Shown here: positions 3,109 through 41,694 of the stretch, piece by piece | How positions within the stretch are numbered: position 1 is the stretch's first letter | Layout: each line of letters opens with the position of its first letter | Assembly: GCA_964368835.1 (NCBI GenBank) | Contig: CAYJCZ010000005.1 | Location: forward strand, 1 to 41,694 | Length of the DNA: 41,694 nucleotides | From: an uncultured Candidatus Saccharibacteria bacterium | GTDB lineage: Bacteria > Patescibacteriota > Minisyncoccia > Phycocordibacterales > UBA6065 | Direction: 5' to 3' | Notes under the pieces: generated by a model | What the model saw: the letters and a program-made list of their open reading frames with translations, nothing else | Database searches by the model: none | What the model was told of the DNA's origin: nothing | Program-made: the position numbers and the translations under genes

Positions 3109-3765
3109 ATGGAGACAAATATCCCGGAGACAAGTATTGTGATGCAAGTGCTACTGCCTATCCTGCTTACCTTGGTCGGTATCATGGTAATCTCGGCCGC
3201 AGCATACTTCCTGGCACGTCCCAGGGAAGGCTCATTCGATTGGGAAAAACACCGCGACAAGGTAATTGCCCTCTTGCTCGTCATCGTCGCACTGGCACTC
3301 ATCAATTGGCTGTGCTACACGATCGGCTGGGGTTGGTGGAAAACTGTCTGGACCTCTCACAAGACGCTCTTCTGGTTAACCCAGTGTGCACTTGTAGTTA
3401 ATGTCGGCATCCACCTCTTCAGTGAAAACGGTTTCGCGAAAGGATTTGCGAAACTGCTTATCGTCATCAGTATCCTTGGTTGGTTTACGGTCAACAGCTT
3501 TAGTGTTAGTGACCTGATACCCGACCCGACGCCGAAAGTCGTTGTAAACAAGGTATTGTTGCTTAAGGGTGATGTCAAAGAGTTCCGCCTGGATGATATC
3601 GTGACGATGGATGATTTGCCGACAATCCTTTACAGGGTGAATCGGCAAGGACAGTTCAAAGAACGCAAGTTCGGCGAACCGTGGAATCTTCCACGCCATA
3701 CCAACACGATTGAGTTTCAGGCAGCTCAAGACATTGTGGTTAGAGTACGTGAGTTAAGACGGTAG
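3109..3765 (+). CDS. Hypothetical membrane protein (about 4 TM)
   Basis: Several hydrophobic segments; 12 nt after the SPFH stop; followed by a terminator. Confidence 0.7.
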   Translation: METNIPETSIVMQVLLPILLTLVGIMVISAAAYFLARPREGSFDWEKHRDKVIALLLVIVALALINWLCYTIGWGWWKTVWTSHKTLFWLTQCALVVNVGIHLFSENGFAKGFAKLLIVISILGWFTVNSFSVSDLIPDPTPKVVVNKVLLLKGDVKEFRLDDIVTMDDLPTILYRVNRQGQFKERKFGEPWNLPRHTNTIEFQAAQDIVVRVRELRR

Positions 3766-3772
3766 CACCTTC

Positions 3773-3806
3773 ATAGGGCAGAAACGAAAGTTTCTGCCCT
3801 ATTTTT
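3773..3806 (+). terminator. Intrinsic terminator
   Basis: Perfect 13-bp stem ATAGGGCAGAAAC/GTTTCTGCCCTAT, GAAA loop, T tract. Confidence 0.85.
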
Positions 3807-3827
3807 ATTTCTCTTAATCCCCAAAGC

Positions 3828-3856
3828 AAAAGCCCCGAGAGAGCTCGGGGCTTTTT
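3828..3856. terminator. Bidirectional terminator ending the pilin operon
   Basis: AAAAGCCCCGAG/CTCGGGGCTTTT, 3 nt from the stop at 3859. Confidence 0.8.
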
Positions 3857-3858
3857 AC

Positions 3859-4107
3859 TTAGTTTACCGGGACACCGATTGTGCTTGCTAGCACACGTAT
3901 GATTCCCCACACCGACACCATAATGAATATGCCCACCGTTGACCACAGAATATGATTGCCCCCTGTTTGCCTCTCTCCCGGATCATCAGATTTACGTATA
4001 TACGTAAACACTCCATAGACGAAGTAGACGATCGCAAGAGCAAACAGAAGCTGGACAATCGGATCAACTACAAGTTCAAAGAATTTTTGTACTTGCGGGG
4101 TATTCAT
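3859..4107 (-). CDS. TrbC/VirB2-like pilin (CPR type)
   Basis: Two hydrophobic helices around a charged loop; GIFIMVSVWGII motif shared with neighbours. Confidence 0.7.
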   Translation of the reverse strand: MNTPQVQKFFELVVDPIVQLLFALAIVYFVYGVFTYIRKSDDPGERQTGGNHILWSTVGIFIMVSVWGIIRVLASTIGVPVN

Positions 4108-4114
4108 GCGTCAA

Positions 4115-4480
4115 TTAAAGGTCAACAGTAACGTCTGGAATCTGATTCTCAACGCCTGATGGAACTCCCTGTACAGTACCTCCGAAGAAGGTATTTGTAA
4201 GGATGTTTACAAGTCCCCATACTGAGACCATAACAAAGAGACCGATAACACCGTAGATAATCTTGTCCTTTGCTGCGCTCTTTGCGTCCTCATCACCTGC
4301 CATAACATATCGAGCGATGCCGTAAATGAAGTATACGACTGCAGCCGCGATAATAAGTGGAAGGAGTGTATTTATGAGGTTGTTAATAAACTGAAATACA
4401 TCCTCAAGATTTGAGACCTGTGCAGCCGCCGTAAGTGGAAGCGCGAGCGACAAAGCTCCAATAAAGACTGATTTTTTCAT
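4115..4480 (-). CDS. TrbC/VirB2-like pilin (CPR type)
   Basis: Signal peptide; YVMAGDEDAKSAAKDKIIYGVIGLFVMVSVWGLV. Confidence 0.75.
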   Translation of the reverse strand: MKKSVFIGALSLALPLTAAAQVSNLEDVFQFINNLINTLLPLIIAAAVVYFIYGIARYVMAGDEDAKSAAKDKIIYGVIGLFVMVSVWGLVNILTNTFFGGTVQGVPSGVENQIPDVTVDL

Positions 4481-5042: not shown

Positions 5043-5189
5043 ATTATTAATTAATTCTTAATAGCACCTCTGATCAGAGCCTCAAAAGTAGCTTTGTATA
5101 CAGTATATAACAAAAGCCGACTTAACAGCTCGTCTGTTTTCCACGGATTTCATGGCTCAACCAGGCTCTGGTTTAGGTATTTATCACTA

Positions 5190-5218
5190 TTGACAAAATG
5201 CATATTTTGTGCGATACT
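5190..5218 (+). promoter_or_regulatory. Sigma70-type promoter with an internal palindrome
   Basis: TTGACA-17 nt-GATACT with extended -10 TG; ACAAAAT-GCAT-ATTTTGT at 5193-5210. Confidence 0.6.
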
Positions 5219-5287
5219 TAACGTAGTCCTCTTTGAGATACAATTTCTTTTGAAATTGAAATAATAAACCCAAACTGAAAGGTAATC

Positions 5288-6334
5288 ATGAACGCAAAAA
5301 AGCCAGCTAAGTCAGCCACCGCCCCTAAGGCAACGCCCGTTACCCCACCAACACAGACAACGTCGCTCGAACCCCAAGGAAAGCTTGCTCGAGTCTTCAT
5401 CTGGATTCAGACCGGAGTCCACAAGCAAGTCCGCAAGGTTCAAGGCAGCATCACGGCTGCAAAGGAAAGGAGAAAGGCAAAGAAGAATGCTGCGGCAACG
5501 GCGCCGATCGATCTGGTACAGCCCTCACGAGGAATTCATTGGTTTCGGTTCTTTCTTAGTTTTGTCGGCGCCCTTCTTCTCACCCTACTTCTGTGCGAAT
5601 GGATGGGAATGGAGCCTATCAACAGAACGGTCAGTTGGTTCCGTGGCCAAAGCAGTCAAAATCAGGAGAACCTGACGGAACTGCAAAAGCACTTTGTTGA
5701 ACTTGCCCGCGAAGTCGACGTGCTCAAGGGTCTGATCGTAACCCACAGAGACGAAGTCGAGAAAACTCAAAAAGCTATCTCCCTTCGTCAGGACGACATC
5801 GACATTGGTGTCGATTCCGTTATTGGAGAGATCCGTGTGGCACTCAAGAAAGATTCCGACGGAGGCAAAGTGGTAAAAGAGCTCTCTGATCAAGTGGCAA
5901 TGCAAACCGAGGAAATCAAGCAACTGAAGGAGAAAATTTCCGAGAGGAAAGAATACCCTGTAGTTGCTGTGATACCGGCCCCAATACCTGCACTCGTCCC
6001 TGCCCCGACCGCTACACCTCCTGTCCGCATATCTGGACCAAAAGAACAGATTCGCGAACAGGATACAGGCGGCCGAGGACTCTGGGTCGGATATATGTAT
6101 GACCCAGGTGAGACCTCCATGAGATACTCTGTAAAAGAGTTTCTCATGAACCAGGTTGCATGGGATAAGATTCCCGGGGTTGAAGTACAGGCAGTGGAAG
6201 GTGACAAAATCACCGTCATCCACCCGCCCATAACAAACTTCGGTAAAGCGACCCATGTTCAGTTCGTATCGAGAAACCAACCCATGAGAGTTCTCAAGTT
6301 GGAACCACGATACAAGTTGGGTGCAAATCTCTAA
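5288..6334 (+). CDS. Hypothetical single-TM coiled-coil protein
   Basis: One TM helix (about aa 84-105), long heptad-like region, Pro-rich linker; has its own promoter, GAAAGG RBS and terminator. Confidence 0.75.
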   Translation: MNAKKPAKSATAPKATPVTPPTQTTSLEPQGKLARVFIWIQTGVHKQVRKVQGSITAAKERRKAKKNAAATAPIDLVQPSRGIHWFRFFLSFVGALLLTLLLCEWMGMEPINRTVSWFRGQSSQNQENLTELQKHFVELAREVDVLKGLIVTHRDEVEKTQKAISLRQDDIDIGVDSVIGEIRVALKKDSDGGKVVKELSDQVAMQTEEIKQLKEKISERKEYPVVAVIPAPIPALVPAPTATPPVRISGPKEQIREQDTGGRGLWVGYMYDPGETSMRYSVKEFLMNQVAWDKIPGVEVQAVEGDKITVIHPPITNFGKATHVQFVSRNQPMRVLKLEPRYKLGANL

Positions 6335-29843: not shown

Positions 29844-29915
29844 GGCCCTATCGTCTAATGGTTAGGACAGAAGCTTTTCAAGCTTTAAATCGGAGTTCGA
29901 TTCTCCGTAGGGTCA
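29844..29915 (+). tRNA. tRNA-Glu(TTC)
   Basis: Acceptor GGCCCTA/TAGGGTC; anticodon arm GAAGC-TTTTCAA-GCTTT; GTTCGATT. Confidence 0.92.
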
Positions 29916-29920
29916 CATTT

Positions 29921-29969
29921 GACAGCTAGCACGAGTAGCTAGGTCTACTCGTGCGCACGATAAGCTGTC
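29921..29969 (+). other. Two-tier hairpin upstream of the DUF3800 gene
   Basis: GACAGCT/AGCTGTC outer stem around perfect GCACGAGTAG/CTACTCGTGC; no U tract. Confidence 0.55.
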
Positions 29970-29983
29970 TAAGACTAAATAAA

Positions 29984-30748
29984 TTGGACGATCGAATACA
30001 TATATACATAGACGAATCAGGAGACATCACACCTGTGATAAATGGAGGCGGGCCCTTGTTTCTGATTGGTTGTGTAATAACAGACAACCCAACACTATTA
30101 AATAAAAAAATAAACGATCTCAAGGAAGAGATAAAGAACAGCGCGTATTACTTTAGAAATAAAGAGAATTTCGACAAAGATGGTTTTCACGCATCGACCA
30201 ACCATCCTGATATATACGGTAGGTTTATAGCATTACTCAATACTTTAAATTTCAGGTCGTATGCCGTATTTGCCGATAAAACAAACGAAAATTACCAGGA
30301 TACGCTAAAGCGCCACCCGGAATTTTACAGTTTTCTTCTCAAGATTCTTTTAAAGGATAGGATACTCAAGCGGAGGGACGAAAAGATTCATATAGTGCTC
30401 GAACAAGGTTCAACTAAACGAACGATAGAAAAAACGACGGTAGCAACAGTCTTAGACGAAATCAATAAATCACTAATTGAGGAAGGTTTCATAACAAAAC
30501 CAATCGACATTACCTTCAGTATTCAGGGTAAAAACGAGGACAATGGTTTAAGCGTGGTGGATTATATAAATCACATAATCTATACTGCTAAAGTCGGTGA
30601 TAGTGAGGGTAAAAAATTCCCTCGCGCCGAACAAAATCTTGCTCTCGTCGAGCCAAAAATCGCTGTCGTTTATGACTTGCTAAATAAGCGATATTTTGAA
30701 GGCCGCAAAGAAACATCTAAGCTTTTTGATTTCCTTAAAGGTGTTTAG
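29984..30748 (+). CDS. DUF3800 family protein (putative retron effector)
   Basis: N-terminal IYIDESGD signature, FHAS, VVDYINH; probable TTG start at 29984 (the ORF is open from 29951). Confidence 0.8.
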   Translation: MDDRIHIYIDESGDITPVINGGGPLFLIGCVITDNPTLLNKKINDLKEEIKNSAYYFRNKENFDKDGFHASTNHPDIYGRFIALLNTLNFRSYAVFADKTNENYQDTLKRHPEFYSFLLKILLKDRILKRRDEKIHIVLEQGSTKRTIEKTTVATVLDEINKSLIEEGFITKPIDITFSIQGKNEDNGLSVVDYINHIIYTAKVGDSEGKKFPRAEQNLALVEPKIAVVYDLLNKRYFEGRKETSKLFDFLKGV

Positions 30749-30841
30749 CTATCAGCCCTCGGTAATCCTATTTTTTTGGATGAGTATGAGTTCGTACTCG
30801 TAGTGAAGTCAACACAAGTTATTCCTACCAAGGGCTGATAG
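30749..30841 (+). ncRNA. Putative retron msr-msd ncRNA
   Basis: 11-bp terminal inverted repeat CTATCAGCCCT/AGGGCTGATAG enclosing a U-rich-loop hairpin and GAGTATG/CGTACTC; fills the gap between DUF3800 and the RT. Confidence 0.65.
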
Positions 30842-30849
30842 GTGAACAT

Positions 30850-31869
30850 ATGGATTTCAAGGATATACAAAACGTCCAAATGCTGTCTGAGTTCCTCGGT
30901 ATCGACCGAGAGTTTTTGGAGATGTTTTTAATTACCAAACCCCTTGTTTCTGAAACAACTGACAGCAAAGAGATAAGGGATAATAGCTGGTACGCCCGAA
31001 TACGGCTTCAAAAAAGAAATAGAAATTTTGGACATCGGGTGGTATACGATGTTAGGAAAAAAGACATACTCGATGCACATAAAAATCTACAGAGCCGTCT
31101 AAATAAGTTATATAAAGTACCGGATTGCGTTCACGGCTTTGTTCATGGCAAAAGCATTAGTTCAAACGCCTCATTTCACCTTGCCAAAAAGATTGTCCTC
31201 AAGCTAGACATCAAAAATTTCTTTGAAAGCATTACAGCAAATCAAGTCGCCGTTGTGTTTCAGAGACTTGGCTGCAATAAAGATATAAGCGAAGCGATTG
31301 CAAGACTCGTAACCATAGACGGGAAACTCGCCCAAGGCTTAGTAACTAGTCCCGTAATCGCAAACATGGCCGTTTCATCGCTCGATGAGAAGCTGAATGC
31401 CTTCTGCCTTGAGAGAGTGTTTGATTACACACGATATGCAGATGACATAACAATATCTTCAAATACAACAACCCCTGAAATTGAGGCGATTGAATCGATT
31501 ATTTCACCGTACGGATTCAGGCTGAATCACAATAAGACGCAGATTATGCTCCGCGGAAAACGACAATACGTTACCGGACTCACCGTCTTTGATGAAAGGT
31601 GTCCCCGCATCTCTAAACGAACCAAAAGAAATCTGAGGCTTGAAGTATACTATCAAAAATTATATGGCATGAGAGATGTCGCGCTTCACAAAATGGGGAT
31701 TTCTCGCAAAATATATGAGAACGACAACGACACCAGATCTTTGGTAGATGCAATTGCGGCGGGCGCTTTTAGAAACCTTAAGGGGAGAATAGACTTTGTG
31801 AACGCTGTCGAACCGCTGTTTGCGAGGGAGTTATATAATGATTTATTTGAGGGCCAAAAATCAGACTGA
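30850..31869 (+). CDS. Retron-type reverse transcriptase
   Basis: LKLDIKNFF, QGLVTSP, YTRYADD; retron hallmarks NASFH (NAxxH) and VTG. Confidence 0.92.
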   Translation: MDFKDIQNVQMLSEFLGIDREFLEMFLITKPLVSETTDSKEIRDNSWYARIRLQKRNRNFGHRVVYDVRKKDILDAHKNLQSRLNKLYKVPDCVHGFVHGKSISSNASFHLAKKIVLKLDIKNFFESITANQVAVVFQRLGCNKDISEAIARLVTIDGKLAQGLVTSPVIANMAVSSLDEKLNAFCLERVFDYTRYADDITISSNTTTPEIEAIESIISPYGFRLNHNKTQIMLRGKRQYVTGLTVFDERCPRISKRTKRNLRLEVYYQKLYGMRDVALHKMGISRKIYENDNDTRSLVDAIAAGAFRNLKGRIDFVNAVEPLFARELYNDLFEGQKSD

Positions 31870-31875
31870 TTTATT

Positions 31876-32979
31876 TTAGCTTGACGCCACTCTCATGCGG
31901 GAGAGCAAGAGTGAAAAGGCTACGGTGTTTTCTCTCAAGATTGAAAACACATCTTTTTCCTTATCGTAAGGAAGTTTAACCAGATCACCCAACAGTTCGC
32001 TATAAACGAAACATGTTTTCATGCACGCCGAATAAGATGCCGCAGAGTGAGCTATGATGACGTTCTTGTATTTTTTTAGGATGCTTTTGACCCAGTTCTT
32101 ACGCGGCCCTTGGAGGATTATCTTTACTTCAGTTTTGACGTTTTCTGAGATATAAGCAATCGTCTTTAGGACTTCCTCAAAATCATTATCGCTTTTTTGG
32201 AGCTGGCAATTGATCGTGATTACCTTTACCTTTGTGTTGTTATTCAGCCATTCCCCGATTCTTTTTCGGTGATGATCGTTAACCGCATAGAAGTGCGGAA
32301 TGGTAGGAAGTCCAAAGGATTCAGCGATTTCAAGGCTTTTGATGCTCTTCTTTAGACTCAAGGCATGGAACCACGGACATTCACCAAGAAAAACTGAAAA
32401 GTTTATACCAGTGACGGCAATGGCCCCCAATCTTTTGATGTTTTCAAAGAGTTTTAACTTATCCCTTTCCCTCCAGACTTTTTCGATAAGCTTATCTTGG
32501 CCGAACATGAATAGGACAACTTTTTTCGATTTGACCAGAGGTGATTTTAGGAGCCTTTCATCAAACACGAGGTCGTCTATATCCGTAAGTTCACCGAAAC
32601 GGTCTTTCGGTCTTGAACGAAATATATCTCCGAGAGCAATGCCGGTCACGTTTTGAGGTACGTCCCCGGGGAGCGCTTTCAGGAGGTGCTCTTTTTGCAT
32701 GAGAGGAATGAATCCTGGAAGTTCGCCTTGAAATGGTATTTTCAACTTTACGGTATTGAAATCGAGGCCGTCCACCTCATCAAGGAAAGCTTTTTTATTA
32801 CAATACTTACACGATATAACGTTCTCATTTCCTGGCAGACAATCATATTTGATGGCTTGTTTCTCATCCTCATTAATAAAGTGGCAAAAGTCGCCCTCTG
32901 TGGCAGAGCACAACAGGGAGCCGAAACCTAAATTATTTCTATCCCCGAGTAAACTCCGCGAACGGCTCATCTCCATCAA
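31876..32979 (-). CDS. DUF4417-like protein with a Cys-rich N-terminus
   Basis: LFMFGQDKLIEKVW, TGINFSVF, GLPTIPHF parallel my recollection of the DUF4417 pattern; true start uncertain (overlaps the upstream gene). Confidence 0.5.
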   Translation of the reverse strand: MMEMSRSRSLLGDRNNLGFGSLLCSATEGDFCHFINEDEKQAIKYDCLPGNENVISCKYCNKKAFLDEVDGLDFNTVKLKIPFQGELPGFIPLMQKEHLLKALPGDVPQNVTGIALGDIFRSRPKDRFGELTDIDDLVFDERLLKSPLVKSKKVVLFMFGQDKLIEKVWRERDKLKLFENIKRLGAIAVTGINFSVFLGECPWFHALSLKKSIKSLEIAESFGLPTIPHFYAVNDHHRKRIGEWLNNNTKVKVITINCQLQKSDNDFEEVLKTIAYISENVKTEVKIILQGPRKNWVKSILKKYKNVIIAHSAASYSACMKTCFVYSELLGDLVKLPYDKEKDVFSILRENTVAFSLLLSRMRVASS

Positions 32980-33289
32980 GCTTTGCCAATCCAGTGTATC
33001 GGAAGCCCTGACCGAGACAGTCTTCGATTTCTTCGCTTCTGTTCTTGGAAAGCTTAGTTATTGTTTTGCTGTTAAAACTGATTGTGAGAAGACCATTCTC
33101 CTTTTTCAAATCGAGCCGTGCGCCTGTAGGAACTCTTGCTTCCTTGGGCAATTTGACCCTAAAATAAAGAGGGCATGTCGGCGCCTCGGATTCTGAGCCT
33201 CCTTGCGCACCTCCACCGCCTGAGCCCTTTGCTATAGGCTCTTGAATACTGACTCTGTCATTTCTTTTACGTTCTGATCCAGATCCCAT
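32939..33289 (-). CDS. Small hypothetical protein with a Gly/Ser-rich N-terminus
   Basis: 116-aa ORF behind a strong promoter; C-terminal CLGQGFRYTG. Confidence 0.65.
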   Translation of the reverse strand: MGSGSERKRNDRVSIQEPIAKGSGGGGAQGGSESEAPTCPLYFRVKLPKEARVPTGARLDLKKENGLLTISFNSKTITKLSKNRSEEIEDCLGQGFRYTGLAKLDGDEPFAEFTRG

Positions 33290-33512: not shown

Positions 33513-33815
33513 ATGATAGAGCTTAAAAAGGTGTTGGGTAAAAGGATAAGGGAGGCGAGGGACGAAAAAGGCATAACACAAAAGGATCTAGCGGAGTTTT
33601 TGGGATATTCCCCTATGGGAATCTCACATTTCGAAAACGGCATCAGAAATCTAAAGATTTCTGATGTTCAAAAACTATCGCAATTTTTCAATAAAGATCT
33701 GTCTTACTTTTTGCAACCCGATACTACCCTATTTAGGGCATCATCGAATCAGGTGGTGGATGTCGAAACTGCCATGAGCGACTTTGATAATTTTTTGAAT
33801 GAAAAAGGTTTTTAA
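33513..33815 (+). CDS. XRE-family HTH regulator
   Basis: GKRIREARDEKGITQKDLAEFLG...ISHFENG. Confidence 0.93.
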   Translation: MIELKKVLGKRIREARDEKGITQKDLAEFLGYSPMGISHFENGIRNLKISDVQKLSQFFNKDLSYFLQPDTTLFRASSNQVVDVETAMSDFDNFLNEKGF

Positions 33816-33818
33816 ATC

Positions 33819-34298
33819 ATGAACTCACATATTAAATATATTCAGGAAATCGCCGAGAAAGCTCTTTTTGGAACAGATCTTGCGAGCATACCAACCCCCA
33901 TTGAAGACGTGGCCCAGAGGTTCGGCTTGAAAGTCGTCGAATTTGATTTTCCCGATTCTATTTCCGGTGTACTGAAAAAAGAAAGAAATGTTATCGGTGT
34001 GAATAAAAAACATCATCCAGTAAGACAGAGATTTACGATCGCTCACGAGCTTGGTCATTTTTTACTCGGACACGACATAGGTAATGAGAATGATGTTGTT
34101 GACGACGACTTCGACAAACCAATCCCGAAAGAAAAAGAAGCGAACCTATTTGCGTCTTATATTCTTATGCCTGAAGATTCGGTAAAAGCCGAGGTAAAAA
34201 AAATAAATTCCATTGACCTAAAGCACCTCGCAAAAACCTTTAATGTTAGTGAGCAGGCAATGACTATCAGACTTCTAAATCTCAACCTCATCAAGTAA
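33819..34298 (+). CDS. ImmA/IrrE family zinc metallopeptidase
   Basis: RQRFTIAHELGH (HExxH), EKEANLFASYILMP, FNVSEQAM. Confidence 0.92.
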   Translation: MNSHIKYIQEIAEKALFGTDLASIPTPIEDVAQRFGLKVVEFDFPDSISGVLKKERNVIGVNKKHHPVRQRFTIAHELGHFLLGHDIGNENDVVDDDFDKPIPKEKEANLFASYILMPEDSVKAEVKKINSIDLKHLAKTFNVSEQAMTIRLLNLNLIK

Positions 34299-34308
34299 GG
34301 AGTCAAAA

Positions 34309-35637
34309 TTAGACTAGTTTGTTTAGGCACACTTTTCTACCATTTAGGACTATTTCTGTTTTTAAACAGCTTAAGAATTCTCGTCTCTCCTGCACGGATC
34401 CCTCTTGTAGGATGAACATTGCGTAGTTGCGTATATCGATATCCTTGATAGTAATTTGTGATTTTTCGCCCAAGAGCATCTGCTGAAACTTTTTGATCCT
34501 CCTTACCTCCATCGCGATTTTGTCTTTCATCGGCACGGTCTGTATATCGATGTCACTCATAAGCCCCTTCAACTGTTCAATTAAATCGTCCTCATTGATA
34601 GCTTCGCACCTACAGCTCGGGTCCTTTGCCTTGGTGCAACGGTAATAGACGTATCGATGAACATTACCGTTCTCCTGATGTTTGAACTTTTCGTCGGCTG
34701 TAATGCCTGACCCGCAGATTCCACACGTCATGATTTTGGTGAAAGCAAATTCCTTTTGAGAGGCGCGGGATTCCATGGTCTTACTTTTGATACGCTCCTG
34801 CACCTGATCAAACAGGTCTTTTGAGATGATCGGCTCATGTGCTCCGTTGTACCACTGCCCTGAACCCTTAGGAAATTCGAATCTGCCGTAATAAAAATGG
34901 TTATCGAGCGTGCGGTACAGGTTGCCGAGGCTGAGCGGCTTGTTGAATTCGGTCTTGAACTTAATCTCATATCGAAGCCAGCTATAGAGCTTCCGCCCGC
35001 TCCAGTTATCATATGCGATTTTCTCGTACATCTGCCTGACTATTGGCGCACGTTCTGGATCGATGATACTTTCACACTTTTTATCCGTACGCTTGGTCTT
35101 GAAATATCCCGTCGGAGGCCTGCATGGCCACAAGCCCATTTCAACCCTGGCTCTCAGTCCGCGCTTCACGTTTATGCTCTTGTTATCGTTCTCGAGCTTC
35201 GCCTGACTACAGAGAATCATCAGAAGGAACTTCTCGTTTGGCGAGTTGGTGAAAGTCTGCCCATACGTTTGGATATGGATGAGCTTTTTCTGGTCCATCA
35301 AATCTACGAGCGACCCGAGGTCGCCTGCATTTCTGCTTAACCTGTCGGGTGCCCATGTCAGGATTCCATTATATGTTCCTCTTCCGATCTCTTCGATTAT
35401 CTCCTTGAAGACTGGTCGTTGTCCTGAATCTTTAGCAGAATGTGCCTCCTTCTTTACGGCGATAACATGAAGCTTCAGCATGTCGGCGATAGCCGACATT
35501 TCCTTGATCTGCGAATCGATAGAGAGCGCCTGCTTCTCGTCCTGTTCGGTCGATTTTCTGGCATAAAGGCAATATTTGATACGGGTTGGTGATACCAATA
35601 CCGTGTTATGAATCTTACCGATAGCATTCGTTTCCAT
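34309..35637 (-). CDS. Large serine recombinase
   Basis: YCLYARKST catalytic Ser, DRLSRN, recombinase domain, Zn ribbon CGICG...YYRC. Confidence 0.93.
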   Translation of the reverse strand: METNAIGKIHNTVLVSPTRIKYCLYARKSTEQDEKQALSIDSQIKEMSAIADMLKLHVIAVKKEAHSAKDSGQRPVFKEIIEEIGRGTYNGILTWAPDRLSRNAGDLGSLVDLMDQKKLIHIQTYGQTFTNSPNEKFLLMILCSQAKLENDNKSINVKRGLRARVEMGLWPCRPPTGYFKTKRTDKKCESIIDPERAPIVRQMYEKIAYDNWSGRKLYSWLRYEIKFKTEFNKPLSLGNLYRTLDNHFYYGRFEFPKGSGQWYNGAHEPIISKDLFDQVQERIKSKTMESRASQKEFAFTKIMTCGICGSGITADEKFKHQENGNVHRYVYYRCTKAKDPSCRCEAINEDDLIEQLKGLMSDIDIQTVPMKDKIAMEVRRIKKFQQMLLGEKSQITIKDIDIRNYAMFILQEGSVQERREFLSCLKTEIVLNGRKVCLNKLV

Positions 35638-35909: not shown

Positions 35910-37625
35910 ATGCCTATCAATACACACGAACAAGAGCTTTCTGCTCGCATAAAAGATCTTGAAAAACAGATCAAAGTTTTAAAAGACCGAAAAAAATTTG
36001 GGCTTGTTTGGGAGGATAAACCCGAGGAAGTTGTTTTACAATGCGATACAAATATTCCTGTACTCAAGGAGGTCAAGGGTAAGAAGTTGTTTTCTGATAA
36101 CGACTTGCCGGTAAATATTCTCATCGAGGGTGATAATTATCATTCGCTCTCCGTTTTAAATTACACACACGGCAACAAAGCTGATGTTGTTTACGCAGAT
36201 CCTCCTTATAATACGGGAAACAAGAGCTGGCGATACAATAACGATTATATCGAAAAGGAGGACGAATTTCGTCACAGCAAGTGGATTTCGTATATTCACA
36301 AAAGAATTAATCTTGCGAAAAAACTTTTAAAAAATACAGGGGTACTTATTTTTGCAATCGATGATTATGAAGTTCATACCCTCCGGCTCTTATTGGATGA
36401 GATCATGGGTGAAGATAATCGACTTGGCACAATAACAGTTGTTCATAATCCTGGGGGTCGCCAAGACGAGCAGTTTTTTGCAACGGCTCATGAGTACATG
36501 CTCATCTACGCAAAGGATCGAAATCAGGCTGTAATCAAACACCTTGATCAGTCAGAAGAAAAGATAAAGGACTATCAATACTCTGATAATCTTGGTACCT
36601 ATAAGCTTCGAGAGTACCGACGAGCAGGAGCTAATTCAAGAAGGCAGGATCGTCCTAATCTTTGGTATCCAATCTACGTAAATCCAAAGACCCTTGAAAT
36701 TGGTATCTCTAAACAGAAGGGATGGACCGAAATTTGGCCAATAGATAAATCAGGCATAGAACGTGTCTGGCGATGGAATGCAAAAACTTTTAACGAAAAG
36801 AAGTCTGATTACATTCAAGTAAAAAAATCTATCGAGGGCTATAAGTTTTACGTTAAGGAGAGGTCTATCAACTACAAAGGTGAGAAGCCAAAGACGTTTT
36901 GGTTTAAACCAGAATACAGTGCAGTTAATGGTACGAGTGTTCTAAAGGAAATTTTCGCTGAAAAATCAGATAAGATTTTTGATTTTCCAAAATCTCCTTT
37001 CTTGATGAGAGATATTCTATCAATTGCGTCCGATACGGATTCTACGGTTGTTGATTTCTTCGCTGGTTCTGGTACGACAGGTCATGCTGTTCTTGAATTG
37101 AATAAACAGGATGGCGGTAATCGTAAATTTATCCTCTGCACAAATAACGAAAATAAGATTGCCGAAGAGGTCACCTATGAACGCCTAAAGCGAGCAATTA
37201 ATGGGTATAAAAATAAAAAAGGAGAAGCCGTTGAGGGTCTTGGAAGTAATTTGTCGTACTACAAAACTGATCTCGTTAATATCGATAAACTTCAACGGAT
37301 ATCAGACGAATCAAAAATAAAGGTTACCCACCAAGCTGGTGAAATGATCGCCTTGAGAGAGGGTACTCTAAACGAAGTTGATAAGAACGATTGGTGGCAG
37401 ATATTTGACGGTAAGGAAAAGAGGACGGTCATCTATTTCAAAGAGGATAAATCAAGACTTCCCGAACTGATTAAATTCCTTGATAAGGAGGACAAGTCTA
37501 CTGTTCTCTATATTTTCGGTTGGGGTAAAAACGAATATAAAAACGAATACTCGAATAAGAATATCAGGGTCGAGGATATTCCAGAGCCGATTATCGAGGT
37601 ATACAAGGAGATTAACCGAATCTAA
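35910..37625 (+). CDS. mod: Type III R-M methyltransferase (Mod)
   Basis: LIEGDNY, DPPYN, FDFPKS, DFFAGSGTTGHAV, RKFILC; upstream of a Res gene. Confidence 0.92.
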   Translation: MPINTHEQELSARIKDLEKQIKVLKDRKKFGLVWEDKPEEVVLQCDTNIPVLKEVKGKKLFSDNDLPVNILIEGDNYHSLSVLNYTHGNKADVVYADPPYNTGNKSWRYNNDYIEKEDEFRHSKWISYIHKRINLAKKLLKNTGVLIFAIDDYEVHTLRLLLDEIMGEDNRLGTITVVHNPGGRQDEQFFATAHEYMLIYAKDRNQAVIKHLDQSEEKIKDYQYSDNLGTYKLREYRRAGANSRRQDRPNLWYPIYVNPKTLEIGISKQKGWTEIWPIDKSGIERVWRWNAKTFNEKKSDYIQVKKSIEGYKFYVKERSINYKGEKPKTFWFKPEYSAVNGTSVLKEIFAEKSDKIFDFPKSPFLMRDILSIASDTDSTVVDFFAGSGTTGHAVLELNKQDGGNRKFILCTNNENKIAEEVTYERLKRAINGYKNKKGEAVEGLGSNLSYYKTDLVNIDKLQRISDESKIKVTHQAGEMIALREGTLNEVDKNDWWQIFDGKEKRTVIYFKEDKSRLPELIKFLDKEDKSTVLYIFGWGKNEYKNEYSNKNIRVEDIPEPIIEVYKEINRI

Positions 37626-37630
37626 AGATT

Positions 37631-39961
37631 ATGTTTGCACTTAAACCATTTCAAGAGATAGCTATAGCGAAACTGAAAAATCAGTTCCTTTCCCTTTGGA
37701 AATCTCCTCACGATAATATACCCCTCGTTTTTAAATCTCCTACTGGCTCGGGAAAAACGATAATGTTGGCGCAGTTTCTGCGCGATCTTGTCGGCGACCC
37801 TCGATTCTATGGTAACGATGTTGCCTTTGTGTGGTTCACGTTCAGCGAGGATTCATATGTCCAGAGCAAAAACAAACTATTTGAATACTATGGTGGCGCA
37901 TCTGAACTCGATCTCCTCGATTTAAATGATCTTGCACGTGGCAAGATGGCAAAAAACTCGGTTTTCTTCATTAACTGGCAGAAGATTAAGGGTCGTTCAA
38001 AAGAAAGCAGAAAGCTTCGCAAGGATAACGAATGGGGCCATACCTTTGATAGCTTTATCGAAAAGACGAAGAACGACGGTCGCAAGCTCGTTGTGATTAT
38101 CGATGAGGAGCACATTGGATCTGATACCGAATTGGCGCTTGAAATCATAGACGGACTTATCAAGCCGAAAATAACTCTACGCATTTCCGCTACGCCTAAA
38201 TACATACCGAATGCCGAGGACATTGCCGAGCAAAAGGGTGGGTTCACGCAGGTAAAGCGGGAAGAAGTTGTGGAAGCTGGCCTTATAAAGGAAAAGGTTA
38301 TTTTCCAAACCGAGGAAGACTTAAATAGAAAGGACTTTAGAGGAATAGACCAAGACGAAATTCTGCTCGAACTCGCATATCAGAAAAGACAGGATATTGT
38401 AAAACTCTATAAGAAAGTGGGTGCAGAAATCAATCCTCTCGTGCTCATTCAGCTACCCAACGACGATCAGGCGGGTAAGGATACGGTCACAATCAACAAG
38501 CAGAATATCGTGCTTGATTTTCTCAAGAAGAAAGGCGTCCTTGAGGATGAAATCGCTATCTGGCTTTCGCAGGATAAGGTAAATCTCGATGATATCGAAA
38601 ATAATAATTCGCCGATATCATTTCTTTTGTTCAAACAAGCGGCCGCTACGGGTTGGGATTGCCCTCGAGCGGGAGTGCTTGTTATGTTCAGGGAAATCAA
38701 GAACCCTACATTCGCGATACAGACCGTGGGACGAATCCTCCGAATGCCGTTCGGTGCCCATTTTCCCATACCAGAACTAAATCTCGGCTATCTCTACACC
38801 AATTACAAGAGAAACGAGGTCCTTGCCGAATACGGCAAATCGAAAACCGATAATCGTCCCGCAATCTACGCAAGTCACCGAAAGGAGGACGTCAAACCGA
38901 TAGTTGTTGATTCGGTATTCATGAGCCGTACCGACTACAACGATCTTGGCGATACATTCCAAAATACTTTCAACGATATTGCTGATTCATATTTCGGTGT
39001 CACAGCCAAGGACATCATGGGTCAGGCGCTTAAAAAACTTGAGGTCAAGAAGCTCGAAACCAATCCAAGTGTCACGAACGGTCTCATCGTGGGCGTGGAG
39101 ATTGATGATTACGATAATTTCACCAAGGAACTTATCGCCGAGGGTGGAAGCCATGATCAAGAGATATCACAGCACGACCTAGAGCGCCTCTACAATCTTC
39201 GCTGTTTCAATTGTATCGCTCGCCAAATCGACGAGAACAAGAAATTTGCACCTGAGCGATCATGGGGAAAGCTGAAAACTGCCCTCAACGTCTGGCTCCT
39301 GAAAACTACTGGCCAGAACAGACAAGTGATCTACAAGATAGCCGTACATGATCTATTAAGTCAGACGAGCGTACTCGCCCCTCTTATTGGAATCGCTCTT
39401 GAGAAGTATCGTCCGATTCGAGAAAAAGAGGTCAATAAGAAATCTGAGCGTTCCAAACGAACCGAGACCCTTGAGATTCCGCGTGAACTGCTTTCGTTCA
39501 CGGATCAGTATGAGGAAATGAAGGTAAAAAAGTGTGCGATGGAGCCTTTCTACATCGAGAGGGACTACAAGGGTGAGGACAACGAAAAAGAGTTCATAAA
39601 ATTCCTTGAATCGAATAAAGAAGTCACTTGGTGGTACAAAAACGGCGACACGGGAAGTGAGTTCTTTTCGATTTCCTACTATAACCCCGACGAAAACAAA
39701 GAGAAGCTCTTCTACCCTGACTGGATCATACAGACAAAGAAATCTGTCTGGATTATCGACACGAAGAAAGGCTCTACAGCCGAGATACCTGACACAAAAT
39801 ATAAAGCTGAGGCCTTGCAGGAATGGCTCAGGGGAAAGAAAGGCTTTACCGGAGGCATTGCCGTTCAAGATGGCCCTAACGGGTGGAAGATCAATTCCGA
39901 TAAGAAATATTCCTACTCGCCAGCATTCAAGGGTTGGGATAACCTAAATGATGCGTTTTAA
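37631..39961 (+). CDS. res: Type III R-M restriction helicase-endonuclease (Res)
   Basis: SPTGSGKT, DEEH, GWDCPRA, QTVGRILR, C-terminal YPDW...IDTK PD-(D/E)xK. Confidence 0.9.
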   Translation: MFALKPFQEIAIAKLKNQFLSLWKSPHDNIPLVFKSPTGSGKTIMLAQFLRDLVGDPRFYGNDVAFVWFTFSEDSYVQSKNKLFEYYGGASELDLLDLNDLARGKMAKNSVFFINWQKIKGRSKESRKLRKDNEWGHTFDSFIEKTKNDGRKLVVIIDEEHIGSDTELALEIIDGLIKPKITLRISATPKYIPNAEDIAEQKGGFTQVKREEVVEAGLIKEKVIFQTEEDLNRKDFRGIDQDEILLELAYQKRQDIVKLYKKVGAEINPLVLIQLPNDDQAGKDTVTINKQNIVLDFLKKKGVLEDEIAIWLSQDKVNLDDIENNNSPISFLLFKQAAATGWDCPRAGVLVMFREIKNPTFAIQTVGRILRMPFGAHFPIPELNLGYLYTNYKRNEVLAEYGKSKTDNRPAIYASHRKEDVKPIVVDSVFMSRTDYNDLGDTFQNTFNDIADSYFGVTAKDIMGQALKKLEVKKLETNPSVTNGLIVGVEIDDYDNFTKELIAEGGSHDQEISQHDLERLYNLRCFNCIARQIDENKKFAPERSWGKLKTALNVWLLKTTGQNRQVIYKIAVHDLLSQTSVLAPLIGIALEKYRPIREKEVNKKSERSKRTETLEIPRELLSFTDQYEEMKVKKCAMEPFYIERDYKGEDNEKEFIKFLESNKEVTWWYKNGDTGSEFFSISYYNPDENKEKLFYPDWIIQTKKSVWIIDTKKGSTAEIPDTKYKAEALQEWLRGKKGFTGGIAVQDGPNGWKINSDKKYSYSPAFKGWDNLNDAF

Positions 39962-39981: not shown

Positions 39982-40482
39982 TTATGAGCTATCATCTGGT
40001 CTTGGTTGATTGGCATCAGCGCTATAATCCCTGAATACCACCTCGTTTGTCTGAGGCGGCTTGTCCAAATCTATTGGCCCATACTTCTCTTCGTATGCTT
40101 CGAGCTTCTGCCACCTCTCGATTTCATCTTTACTATTCATGATTCGTATATCAACACCCTTTGGCTTTTTCTCATTGGGGTCTTTCCAAATATATGCGAG
40201 TCTCGGTCTTATATAGTTTGCTTTGTGGTTGTCGAGCCAATATTTTATAGACCACGGTTCGCCCTTTTGGATATGGTTAACAAGCTTACTCTCGGCAAGG
40301 TCGTTGATTGAGTCGGTGCCCATGTTCGTTGCTACCTGTAAGGCTTTCTTGAATTTAGGATCCTCTTTGCACCATCGGTATATGGTATTTCTCGATAGTC
40401 CAAGGTTTGCAGCCGCTACGGAGATGTTGGGCACTCTCTGTATTTCTTCGAGAAATTTACTCGCTTTGCGGTGCTTTTTCAT
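39982..40482 (-). CDS. Phage-type HTH protein (terminase small subunit-like)
   Basis: NISVAAANLGLSRNTIYRW...DPKF; overlaps the end of the ParB-methyltransferase. Confidence 0.6.
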   Translation of the reverse strand: MKKHRKASKFLEEIQRVPNISVAAANLGLSRNTIYRWCKEDPKFKKALQVATNMGTDSINDLAESKLVNHIQKGEPWSIKYWLDNHKANYIRPRLAYIWKDPNEKKPKGVDIRIMNSKDEIERWQKLEAYEEKYGPIDLDKPPQTNEVVFRDYSADANQPRPDDSS

Positions 40483-41694
40483 CTCTTATAATCTCGGCTT
40501 TTCGGCCAGTTAATTTCTCCCAACGCGCCACGACCAAGTCACAAAAGACTGGTTCAAGCTCCACAGCATAGACGCGCCTTTTTAGCTGCTCTCCTGCGAT
40601 TATGGTACTGCCTGAACCAGAGAAGCTGTCGAGGATGATGTCTCCAGGCCTTGTACAACGCAGGATCGGTTTCTGGTGAAGTTGTGGAGGCTTTGATGTG
40701 GCGTGTTTGTATTCCTTGCCTGAAAGCCTCTTGGCAGTCCATATATCACCAATCTGGTCGAGCATATCATTACCTCCTGTCACTTCTTTATTCAATACCT
40801 CGTTGAGGTTATTTATGCCGTCGGTGATATGCGGCTTGCCCAGAGTGCCATAGGTGCACGGCTCATAGCATTTGTTAAATGCGCTCGTAGGTGTAGGGTT
40901 GTGCCCGTTTTTTATCCAGAGACACACCCGCTTGTTGTTTATGCCGAGTTCTCTGTAGAGGGTCTGTACGAGCCAAATATATTTCTGATCAGACCAGTAG
41001 AAGACGTGGGTATCAGTAGAGGAAACGGAGAAGGCTGCCTCCATGGTCTTTTTCAAAAAGACTTTGTAGCCCTCATCGCTTCTTTCGTCGTTCACCGAGC
41101 CACCGTAATTTTGTGCGCCTCCCACGCCCTTGTCGTAATCGAGCTTAATGTTGTAGGGAGGGTCGGAATATATCATTGATGCGCGATCCTCTCCGAAAAG
41201 CTTTTGCAGAACATTACGATCAGTGGAGTCGCCGCAGATCAATCGGTGATTTCCCATGAGTATCAGGTCGCCGAGTTTTGTGGTCGGTTTCGCTATTTTT
41301 TTAAGCTCTTTTTCGACATCGAAATCATCATCTGCCACTTCGATGGTCTTGCCCCAATGACTATCAAGGTCAACTGCTTCAAAGCCTATGTCAATCAAAG
41401 TGCCGAGGTTAAATTCTTTGAGCTTCTCATAGTCCCAATCGCCGTCATTGTTATTACTCTCAAGCGCCACCTTGTCTTTCTCCTCTGGTGTAAGAGGACG
41501 ATCAGGAACAAGGACCGTAACCTCAAGTATTTCCAGATCTGTGAGAGCTTTCTTGCGTTGGTTCCCAGAAAGAACCACACCATCTGTGTCGATTTTGAGA
41601 ACATCGTGGAATCCGCGTTCACTTATTCTTTCTTTTAATTTAAGGAAGGCCTCGCTTGTAATCTTTCTCGGATTGTTTTTCCAGAGCTTAAGGT
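40457..41694 (-). CDS. ParB-like N-terminal domain fused to a DNA methyltransferase (5' end beyond the window)
   Basis: Frame open to the edge (…LKLWKNNPRKI…VLSGNQR); HRLICGDST, SDPPYN, HATSKP, LDSFSGSGST. Confidence 0.88.
   Translation of the reverse strand, partial: LKLWKNNPRKITSEAFLKLKERISERGFHDVLKIDTDGVVLSGNQRKKALTDLEILEVTVLVPDRPLTPEEKDKVALESNNNDGDWDYEKLKEFNLGTLIDIGFEAVDLDSHWGKTIEVADDDFDVEKELKKIAKPTTKLGDLILMGNHRLICGDSTDRNVLQKLFGEDRASMIYSDPPYNIKLDYDKGVGGAQNYGGSVNDERSDEGYKVFLKKTMEAAFSVSSTDTHVFYWSDQKYIWLVQTLYRELGINNKRVCLWIKNGHNPTPTSAFNKCYEPCTYGTLGKPHITDGINNLNEVLNKEVTGGNDMLDQIGDIWTAKRLSGKEYKHATSKPPQLHQKPILRCTRPGDIILDSFSGSGSTIIAGEQLKRRVYAVELEPVFCDLVVARWEKLTGRKAEIIRDEKAPQSE

Follow-up and report, generated by a model that had tools for sequence, protein, structure and literature searches.

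A small conserved RNA between the DUF3800 and reverse transcriptase genes of a type VII-A2 retron in a Patescibacteria chromosome

Does the short gap between a DUF3800 gene and a reverse transcriptase (RT) gene encode the non-coding RNA (ncRNA) of a retron, and what could the RT make from so small an RNA? We put this question to contig CAYJCZ010000005.1 (assembly GCA_964368835.1), of which 41,694 nucleotides (nt) were analysed; this whole stretch is called the window below. The DUF3800 open reading frame (ORF), a gap of 101 nt and the RT ORF lie consecutively within the window, all on the forward strand. Judged by its sequence, the locus is a type VII-A2 retron, a divergent addition to an already catalogued type, and the gap RNA is very probably its ncRNA. 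The reading that we favour, with a probability of about 0.6, is that the RT uses this RNA, primes at a G at the inner end of the 5' arm of its closing stem (a1) and makes a very short reverse-transcribed DNA (RT-DNA), with the DUF3800 protein held in check. The three components are:

29984-30748, forward strand: DUF3800 gene, the putative VII-A2 effector with a predicted RNase HII-like fold (stop codon TAG at 30746-48)
30749-30841, forward strand: candidate retron ncRNA of 93 nt, in the gap between the DUF3800 and RT genes
30850-31869, forward strand: retron RT of clade 4, type VII-A2, 339 amino acids (aa), with an ATG start at 30850

The RT matches Pfam RVT_1 (E = 1.4e-19) and, over its full length (1-332/329), the PADLOC model RT_VII-A2 (8.2e-110, 365 bits). 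The next models are the VII-A1 fusion (2.6e-68, 229 bits) and III-A (214 bits), followed by XI and XII; all top PADLOC matches are retron RT models, and by this ranking of hidden Markov models the protein falls into clade 4 of Mestre et al. It carries the motifs NAxxH (N106-H110, N-A-S-F-H), YADD (residues 196-199, nt 31435-46) and VTG (residues 241-243). NAxxH in region X and the VTG triplet in region Y are hallmarks of retron RTs (Mestre et al. 2020). All three motifs had been picked out in a first-pass annotation of this DNA; they are present in the translation and invariant across our alignment of RT homologues (A1). With E<=1e-20 there are 327 homologues, the nearest at 62% identity, and the RT of the experimentally tested retron 807 (our locus L001) is 41% identical.

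Type VII-A2 is defined by a clade-4 RT with a separate DUF3800 gene (Mestre 2020; effector cluster 2165 = DUF3800), and the window has the same RT family, a separate DUF3800 gene and the same gene order. The first-pass annotation had assigned the locus to type VII and suggested a check with PADLOC; run with the PADLOC models, that check confirmed the type, RT_VII-A2 and, for the effector, DUF3800_VII (4.4e-54) being the top matches. The locus itself is unsurprising: PADLOC or DefenseFinder would call it at once. What needs explaining is the RNA, whose parts are:

30749-30764, forward strand: a1, the 5' arm of the closing stem (CTATCAGCCCT-C-GGTA), ending in the family-wide GGUAA
30761-30762, forward strand: GG of GGUAA, the candidate priming (branching) G
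30765-30781, forward strand: stem-loop 1 (SL1), ATCC-TATTTTTTT-GGAT, with stems at 30765-68 and 30778-81 and a U-rich loop; a clade-specific hairpin
30782-30799, forward strand: stem-loop 2 (SL2), a hairpin of 7 base pairs (bp), GAGUAUG-AGUU-CGUACUC, with a U.G wobble beside the closing pair; the family hallmark
30800-30825, forward strand: unpaired 3' segment of 26 nt, GUAGUGAAGUCAACACAAGUUAUUCC, in the position of the msd template, without a stem-loop and with a weak WCACWA motif
30826-30841, forward strand: a2, the 3' arm of the closing stem (TACC-A-AGGGCTGATAG), recognised by the inverted repeat and by covariation

The closing stem is built on an exact 11-bp inverted repeat (CTATCAGCCCT at 30749-59, AGGGCTGATAG at 30831-41), inside which a C.A mismatch is followed by GGTA (30761-64) pairing with TACC (30826-29). 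A repeat finder extends it to 23 nt with 87% complementarity (30742-64 and 30826-48), so that the extended stem, 30742-30848, takes in both the stop codon of DUF3800 and AGGTGA, which resembles a Shine-Dalgarno sequence for the RT. When 30745-30849 was folded, the minimum free energy (MFE) structure, which contains both SL1 and SL2, reached -39.8 kcal/mol, as compared with -21.2 +/- 3.6 for 200 dinucleotide shuffles (z = -5.1), none of which folded as well. The first-pass annotation had described the length of the gap, the 11-bp repeat extendable by GGTA/TACC, and the ATCC/GGAT and GAGTATG/CGTACTC hairpins; every one of these features is where it had placed them. We read the RNA from the forward strand because its G-U pairs would be A.C on the opposite strand: the U.G of SL2 is conserved, and the outer stem of one relative (L008) contains four G-U pairs. 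The DUF3800 gene, the gap RNA and the RT gene are probably co-transcribed. No Rfam model matches within 30749-30841 even at E<=10, including DUF3800-I to -XI and RT-1 to RT-19, structured RNAs beside DUF3800 and RT genes of which some were proposed to be retron RNAs (Weinberg et al. 2017), and at the gathering score Rfam gave nothing relevant in 20 related loci. The sole Rfam msr match (19 bits) lies on the reverse strand inside the DUF3800 ORF and was dismissed as noise.

To see how far this RNA is conserved, we collected contigs of seven homologues with 56-62% RT identity (the close set, L161-L173), three loci at 42-43% identity (L244, L245 and L243, the last from a Patescibacteria metagenome-assembled genome, MAG) and further distant loci from genome and metagenome scans with the RT alignment. 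These scans were swamped by generic retron RTs, QYVTGLT and RYADD being common to all retrons; about 15 of 160 scanned loci were clade 4, and the remainder were kept as negative controls. All 24 distinct clade-4 loci, drawn from Patescibacteria, Bacteroidota, Proteobacteria and Actinomycetota, repeat this layout and RNA architecture. The order DUF3800, ncRNA, RT on one strand, as the first-pass annotation had it, was found in each of the 22 VII-A2 loci examined, with gaps of 67-135 nt. In L008, L085 and L039 DUF3800 seemed to be absent at first, and divergent copies were then recognised by their matches to DUF3800_VII (5e-18 to 1e-11).

Between the window and the seven close loci the gap is 76-86% identical in nucleotide sequence, compared with 62-67% for the flanking genes, and the same fold is found in all seven. 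RNAalifold predicts 36 pairs for the close relatives, 7 of them with compensatory changes; in SL2, for example, GAGUAUG/CGUACUC becomes GAGCGCG/CGCGCUC. SL1 also shows compensatory changes in L161-L173. The distant VII-A2 loci lack it and have a linker instead, 5-13 nt long and poor in G. The closing stem of the distant loci is 9-24 bp long and wholly lineage-specific in sequence, usually ending in GGUAA / UUACC (GGTAA or GGGTAA in 20 of the 24 loci). SL2 is present throughout (24/24), and six of its seven pairs vary, five of them on both sides and the U.G pair by exchange of UG for CG (15 UG, 8 CG). The unpaired 3' segment measures 22-34 nt in all loci and bears the weak WCACWA motif, and no conserved helix is predicted within it in any clade-4 locus. 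The whole element amounts to 74-99 nt.

The pairing of a1 with a2 was examined in two further ways. When the flanking regions were set solely by their distance from the hairpin, the cognate a1-a2 duplex ranked first in stability in 21 of the 24 loci and second in the remaining three. Pair counts were made on an alignment (A3) in which the hairpin was spliced to 10 nt of each arm, because a MAFFT alignment of the full element left the arms out of pairing register. In A3, which is partly hand-anchored (the arms of 3 of its 23 sequences, L086, L007 and L039, were placed by complementarity and the others anchored on TAA/TTA), 93.4% of cells are paired, as against 73.1% after shuffling (0 of 500 shuffles reach 93.4%) and 37-51% in slid registers, and 15 of the 17 pairs change on both sides. 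The inverted repeat, on whose conservation in homologous loci the first-pass annotation had made its proposal depend, is thus conserved and covarying in 24 loci.

A covariance model built from the close clade alone (R1) scores 107-131 bits in the close loci and, with filters off, finds the element as its best forward-strand match in 13 of 15 distant loci; it has no match in some 150 loci that belong to other retron types. An alignment derived from R1 (A5) was dropped as the base for a general covariance model, reverse-strand and noise matches being mixed into it. Taken together, the comparison shows strong selection on the structure of this small intergenic element in no fewer than four phyla. 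As a separate observation, three elements of about 105 nt lying 3' of the RT in L082 (1445-1549, 1926-2031 and 2083-2187) match R1 weakly on both strands (E 0.13-0.55); these have the look of palindromic repeats and have nothing to do with the ncRNA site. A scan of viral contigs for GGTAA..TATGAGTTCGTA returned 69 matches, none beside an RT or DUF3800 gene, and these were set aside as chance matches.

The element is also tied to the RT lineage beyond type VII-A2. The same architecture stands 5' of a VII-A1 RT-DUF3800 fusion (L007, Brevundimonas diminuta, 6e-268) and 5' of a type VIII RT (L086, 6e-93). Of 176 retron-RT loci, 50 have a hairpin with the G-AGU(U)-C loop of SL2 on the forward strand, within 500 nt 5' of the RT; these upstream sites make up 50 of the 78 matches to the hairpin in about 1.9 Mb of strand sequence. 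In type III-A loci (L046, L033, L009, L101, L115, L136, L102 and L092 among others) it follows 0-7 nt after 'UUA-G', that is the end of a1 and the branching G, and is itself followed by long msd stem-loops; from the hairpin to the RT start there are 170-310 nt in these loci and 20-113 nt in clade 4. None of the ncRNAs of the III-A loci that carry the hairpin is in Rfam 15. The two groups thus share a G-AGU(U)-C hairpin shortly after a1 and have related RTs, RT_III-A being among the next-best PADLOC models for the window protein. They differ in that III-A ncRNAs are about 200-300 nt long, with long msd stem-loops and a clear UUA-G, whereas the window has 93 nt without an msd stem-loop. On this sequence evidence SL2 is best read as a homologue of the type III-A msr hairpin, the msd having shrunk to a short unstructured tail, and the G-AGU(U)-C hairpin may serve RTs across much of the retron tree as a general recognition element. 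In an msr the RT typically recognises between one and three short hairpins, and the gap RNA has two, SL1 and SL2. Since the SL2 hairpin also sits in the type III-A msr, the RNA in the gap is very probably the retron's ncRNA.

How does this compare with what was known of clade-4 retron RNA? Mestre et al. (2020) found no consensus ncRNA for clades 4-6 and listed VII-A1, VII-A2 and VIII as 'nd', and a preprint of April 2026 still calls the msr-msd of these types unidentified. In Supplement 3 of Khan et al. (2024), ncRNAs were chosen by single-sequence folding within 500 bp of the RT, and the candidate ncRNA given there for five clade-4 retrons is the same element; for retron 807 it is exactly the gap element of L001. 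The candidate is therefore already contained in that work, and what is added here is its conservation, its covariation, its strand and the link to the III-A msr. Relative to the tested VII-A2 members 807 and 803, the clade of the window has an extra SL1 and a Patescibacteria host.

Two products sequenced by Khan et al. (2024) bear directly on how the RNA might be used. Retron 796, of type VIII from Pseudomonas syringae, resembles the window in its a1/a2 stem, a small first hairpin, a GGGUACG-AGUC-CGUACUC hairpin and an unpaired 3' tail, all within an 88-nt ncRNA, and differs in having a DUF626 esterase as effector rather than DUF3800. Its RT-DNA is invisible on gels; sequencing gave 65 nt, templated by nt 12-76; this is the whole interior of the RNA, which the copy crosses from the inside edge of a2 by way of the hairpin as far as the G that ends a1 on its inner side. 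In retron 400 (III-A1, Ochrobactrum anthropi), RT-DNA is abundant (0.95x Eco1), as in type III-A generally, and templated by nt 89-192. It ends about 9 nt 3' of the hairpin, which lies in the msr and is not reverse-transcribed.

In the reading that we favour, the RT would recognise SL2 together with the inner end of the stem, SL2 being the same kind of hairpin as in the III-A msr. We infer that it would prime from the 2'-OH of the inner a1 G, most likely G30762 or G30761; these are the best candidates because the 5' strand has no other conserved G where the closing stem ends on its inner side. The first-pass annotation had likewise proposed one of these two as the branch point. The RNA would then be copied leftwards from the base beside a2, at about 30825-30827. 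The RT-DNA would come to about 26 nt if synthesis halts 3' of SL2, by analogy with the type III-A1 retron 400, and to as much as about 65 nt if the whole interior is copied, by analogy with the type VIII retron 796; the first-pass annotation had put it at about 45 nt. The resulting complex of RT, RNA and DNA would restrain the RNase-HII-like DUF3800 nuclease; a phage that perturbs the complex would release the nuclease, and the infection would abort.

The canonical retron for comparison is Eco1 (Ec86). Ec86 has an unpaired branching G that follows ...CCCUUA and faces another G, and it makes an 86-nt multicopy single-stranded DNA (msDNA) with a long hairpin. The window shares with Ec86 an a1/a2 closing stem directly 5' of the RT and a retron RT with NAxxH and VTG. 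Unlike that canonical G, however, the conserved G30761/62 form pairs with CC in UUACC, and an msd hairpin is absent. A parallel drawn in the first-pass annotation between CCCTTAG of Ec86 and CCCTCGG in the window is not conserved, close relatives reading CTCTTGG, and is coincidental.

Several observations weigh against the favoured reading, and we set them out together. No long msd stem-loop (10-50 bp) is present in the gap RNA of the window or in any clade-4 locus examined. Most VII-A2 loci have no unpaired G after a1, the linker there lacking G, and the 'UUA-G' context with a facing G is absent from VII-A2 loci; only the GC-rich L007 and L039 have a G directly after a1. Of five clade-4 retrons tried in E. 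coli, four (783, 789, 796 and 807) gave zero RT-DNA by polyacrylamide gel electrophoresis (PAGE) (Khan 2024). Among them are the VII-A1 retrons 789 and 783 and the VII-A2 retron 807 (Deltaproteobacteria UBA6106), which was tested with exactly the 92-nt gap element. For the fifth, retron 803 (VII-A2, Altibacter), the tested segment of 286 nt took in the end of the DUF3800 ORF, and the yield was 0.16x Eco1 (Khan 2024); the 5' end of its 181-nt RT-DNA is templated by the U immediately 5' of the GAGUUCG loop, from where the product runs upstream through a1, and this 5' end does not fit initiation beside a2. Finally, experiments on DUF3800 toxicity or on defence by type VII retrons were not found in the literature searched. 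The experimental record on clade-4 RT-DNA is thin and internally inconsistent. The negative gels could reflect a very short product, or the census constructs, which had neither the effector nor their native host. As an observation in its own right, the RT-DNA of retron 803 extends into the coding end of DUF3800, and no standard retron priming model accounts for that product.

A broader form of the favoured reading, which we regard as possible and hold only tentatively, extends to VII-A1, VII-A2 and VIII as a whole, with their ncRNAs of 74-99 nt. These clade-4 systems may be a separate class of 'mini-retrons' that kept the msr hairpin, lost the msd stem-loop and make an ultra-short RT-DNA without a hairpin (about 22-34 nt, at most the interior of about 65 nt), with DUF3800 acting as sensor and nuclease on the hybrid. 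If this were true, the product would have been missed in the 2024 census by reason of its size, the absent effector or the need for an infection signal, which would account for clade-4 types seeming to be 'non-producers'. The first-pass annotation had called the retron unusually minimal and connected this with a genome-reduced host. The emphasis there is misplaced: in free-living Bacteroidota, Proteobacteria and Actinomycetota, systems of types VII-A1, VII-A2 and VIII ordinarily have an ncRNA of 74-99 nt, and the small size of the ncRNA is a property of the clade, not a consequence of the host belonging to the candidate phyla radiation (CPR).

What would the nuclease be? The DUF3800 protein matches Pfam DUF3800 (6.8e-9), in addition to the PADLOC model cited above. 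Its likely start, TTG 29984, which the first-pass annotation also used, fits the homologues, the alternatives being GTG 29951 and GTG 30035. The source gene call P0241 has 237 aa, implying GTG 30035, and would delete the invariant IYIDESGD with its catalytic DE motif; it is a probable start-codon misannotation. Invariant among the homologues are D10 and E11, G13 and D14, H69, N73, H74 and D76 (within a GFHAS.NH.D motif), E140 and Q141, and D193. The protein is separate and unfused, with the N-terminal DE at D10-E11 and a C-terminal S-V-V-D193 that does not have the Q of QxxD; Mestre (2020) describes VII-A2 DUF3800 proteins as having the N-terminal DE motif and as lacking the Q of QxxD.

An AlphaFold2 (AF2) model of the protein built with the homologue alignment reached a mean confidence (pLDDT) of 90.8. 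Its top five Foldseek matches in the PDB are archaeal RNase HII structures (E 3.8e-5 to 4.6e-4, TM 0.33-0.51), the best being 1EKE (E 3.8e-5, TM 0.44-0.51); a sequence search of the PDB with the DUF3800 profile gave noise only. This predicted fold is in line with earlier descriptions of DUF3800 as RNase H2-like by threading (Mestre 2020) and as an 'RNase H fold with catalytic rearrangement' (Altae-Tran et al. 2023). We favour an effector role over a purely maturation role because VII-A1 fuses the domain to the RT in the way that Toprim, protease and TIR effectors are fused, an argument by analogy that makes DUF3800 the likely effector. Two side observations concern this family. The divergent DUF3800_VII proteins of L008 (2109-2864) and L085 (1485-2210) weakly match the C-terminal part of PADLOC DUF626_VIII (E ~4e-4), a hint from sequence that the type VIII effector may carry a DUF3800-like module. 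A search of viral contigs with the DUF3800 protein found no relative.

The rival explanation that survives best, and that we consider unlikely, is that the RT binds the gap RNA as a regulator or scaffold and does not normally reverse-transcribe it, the RNA being either a translational operator or a template only upon a phage signal. The four retrons with zero RT-DNA by PAGE (783, 789, 796 and 807) count in its favour. As for an operator, a2 covers the ribosome-binding region of the RT, the extended stem 30742-30848 holding the DUF3800 stop and AGGTGA, and in L243 a2 contains the RT start codon itself; however, the a2 of canonical retrons also abuts the RT start, so that this overlap does not discriminate. 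As for a template that awaits a phage signal, type VI retrons are reported to have no constitutive single-stranded DNA and to make it upon infection. Two features speak for routine reverse transcription: the sequenced RT-DNA of retron 796 spans exactly the interior of the homologous element, and the RT keeps all its catalytic and retron-specific motifs. It also counts against this rival that the census constructs were made without effector and native host; the library clean-up of the census, to go by the method text, may lose products shorter than about 40 nt.

Reverse transcription might instead start at SL2 and proceed upstream, first across a1 and then into the DUF3800 mRNA at its 3' end, giving a long antisense cDNA, with the a1/a2 stem and the 3' tail serving recognition rather than templating. 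This we think improbable. It takes its strength from retron 803, the only clade-4 product visible by PAGE, whose 5' end lies beside the loop and which extends across a1, and from the conservation, in the 15 UG and 8 CG pairs, of a U.G wobble at exactly the 803 start position. The ends of the 803 construct are artificial, however (286 nt with a different inverted repeat), and its fold may be non-native. Retron 796 initiates beside a2 and copies through the hairpin, the minimal element of retron 807 alone gave nothing, and the homologous hairpin of the III-A retron 400 is not a start site.

We give very little weight to the idea that the gap RNA belongs with DUF3800 as a structured RNA of the kind described by Weinberg et al. 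(2017), for example a nuclease substrate, a guide or an antitoxin. Eleven unrelated RNA motifs were associated with DUF3800 genes in that study, the element always touches the DUF3800 gene in VII-A2 loci, and DUF3800 is modelled with an RNase H fold. On the other side, no Rfam DUF3800 or RT motif matches even at E<=10, the hallmark hairpin is common to type III-A retrons with unrelated effectors, the VII-A1 fusion has the element 5' of its RT half, and the element also stands 5' of a type VIII RT. That the inverted repeat is there by chance, or is just a terminator, for which its intergenic position alone would speak, is refuted by the comparative data (covariation and conservation across phyla), by the fold (z = -5.1) and by the lack of any U-tract after the repeat, where a terminator scan finds nothing.

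The surroundings of the retron were then inspected. The window is chromosomal, containing gyrA, rpsA, hisS, ftsA and ftsZ, and its GyrA is 86-92% identical to proteins from MAGs of Candidatus Paceibacterota, Taylorbacteria and Parcubacteria, which bears out the earlier statement that this is a CPR genome. Around the retron lie:

29844-29916, forward strand: tRNA-Glu, upstream of the DUF3800 gene
31876-33289, reverse strand: two ORFs of 367 aa and 116 aa, convergent with the RT gene, the stops being 7 nt apart
33513-33815: XRE helix-turn-helix (HTH) repressor, downstream of the RT
33819-34298: ImmA/IrrE M78 peptidase, downstream of the RT
34309-35637, reverse strand: large serine recombinase, downstream of the RT
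35910-37625 and 37631-39961: Mod and Res of a type III restriction-modification system, downstream of the RT
between Res and the second methylase: HTH protein, downstream of the RT
40457-41578, reverse strand: second N6/N4 methylase, downstream of the RT

The retron looks like part of a small island of defence and mobility genes beside tRNA genes in a Patescibacteria chromosome. The 367-aa and 116-aa ORFs, for which Pfam and PADLOC gave no match, may be further cargo of the island between the retron and the XRE/ImmA pair. In a close relative (L164-166), the retron adjoins an NgoPII restriction system and the same kind of serine recombinase. The accessory cargo around VII-A2 retrons is variable from locus to locus: the close relative L167 has a second DUF3800 gene just 3' of the RT (5122-5820) with a PRTase-domain gene nearby, and the Patescibacteria relative L243 has an SNase-like gene directly after the RT (3540-4295; PADLOC C3a212, 3e-19).

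Right after the tRNA-Glu gene, at 29921-29971, there is a nested inverted repeat, GACAGCT...AGCTGTC around a perfect 10-bp hairpin (GCACGAGTAG/CTACTCGTGC), which folds at -24.7 kcal/mol (z -3.4) and has no U-tract. It was considered as an alternative ncRNA and rejected, there being no counterpart 5' of DUF3800 in eight relatives. The repeat could be a tRNA 3' processing signal, a terminator-like element or the remnant of an integration site.

For retrons of types VII and VIII, which looked inactive in the sole systematic survey of RT-DNA, the comparison turns a single-sequence guess from a supplement into a covariation-supported family that defines clade-4 retron RNA. It also yields testable predictions, namely which G primes and where an RT-DNA of 26-65 nt maps. 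If a very short RT-DNA were confirmed, this would be the smallest retron template known, which would be relevant both to the mechanism of retrons and to compact editing tools.

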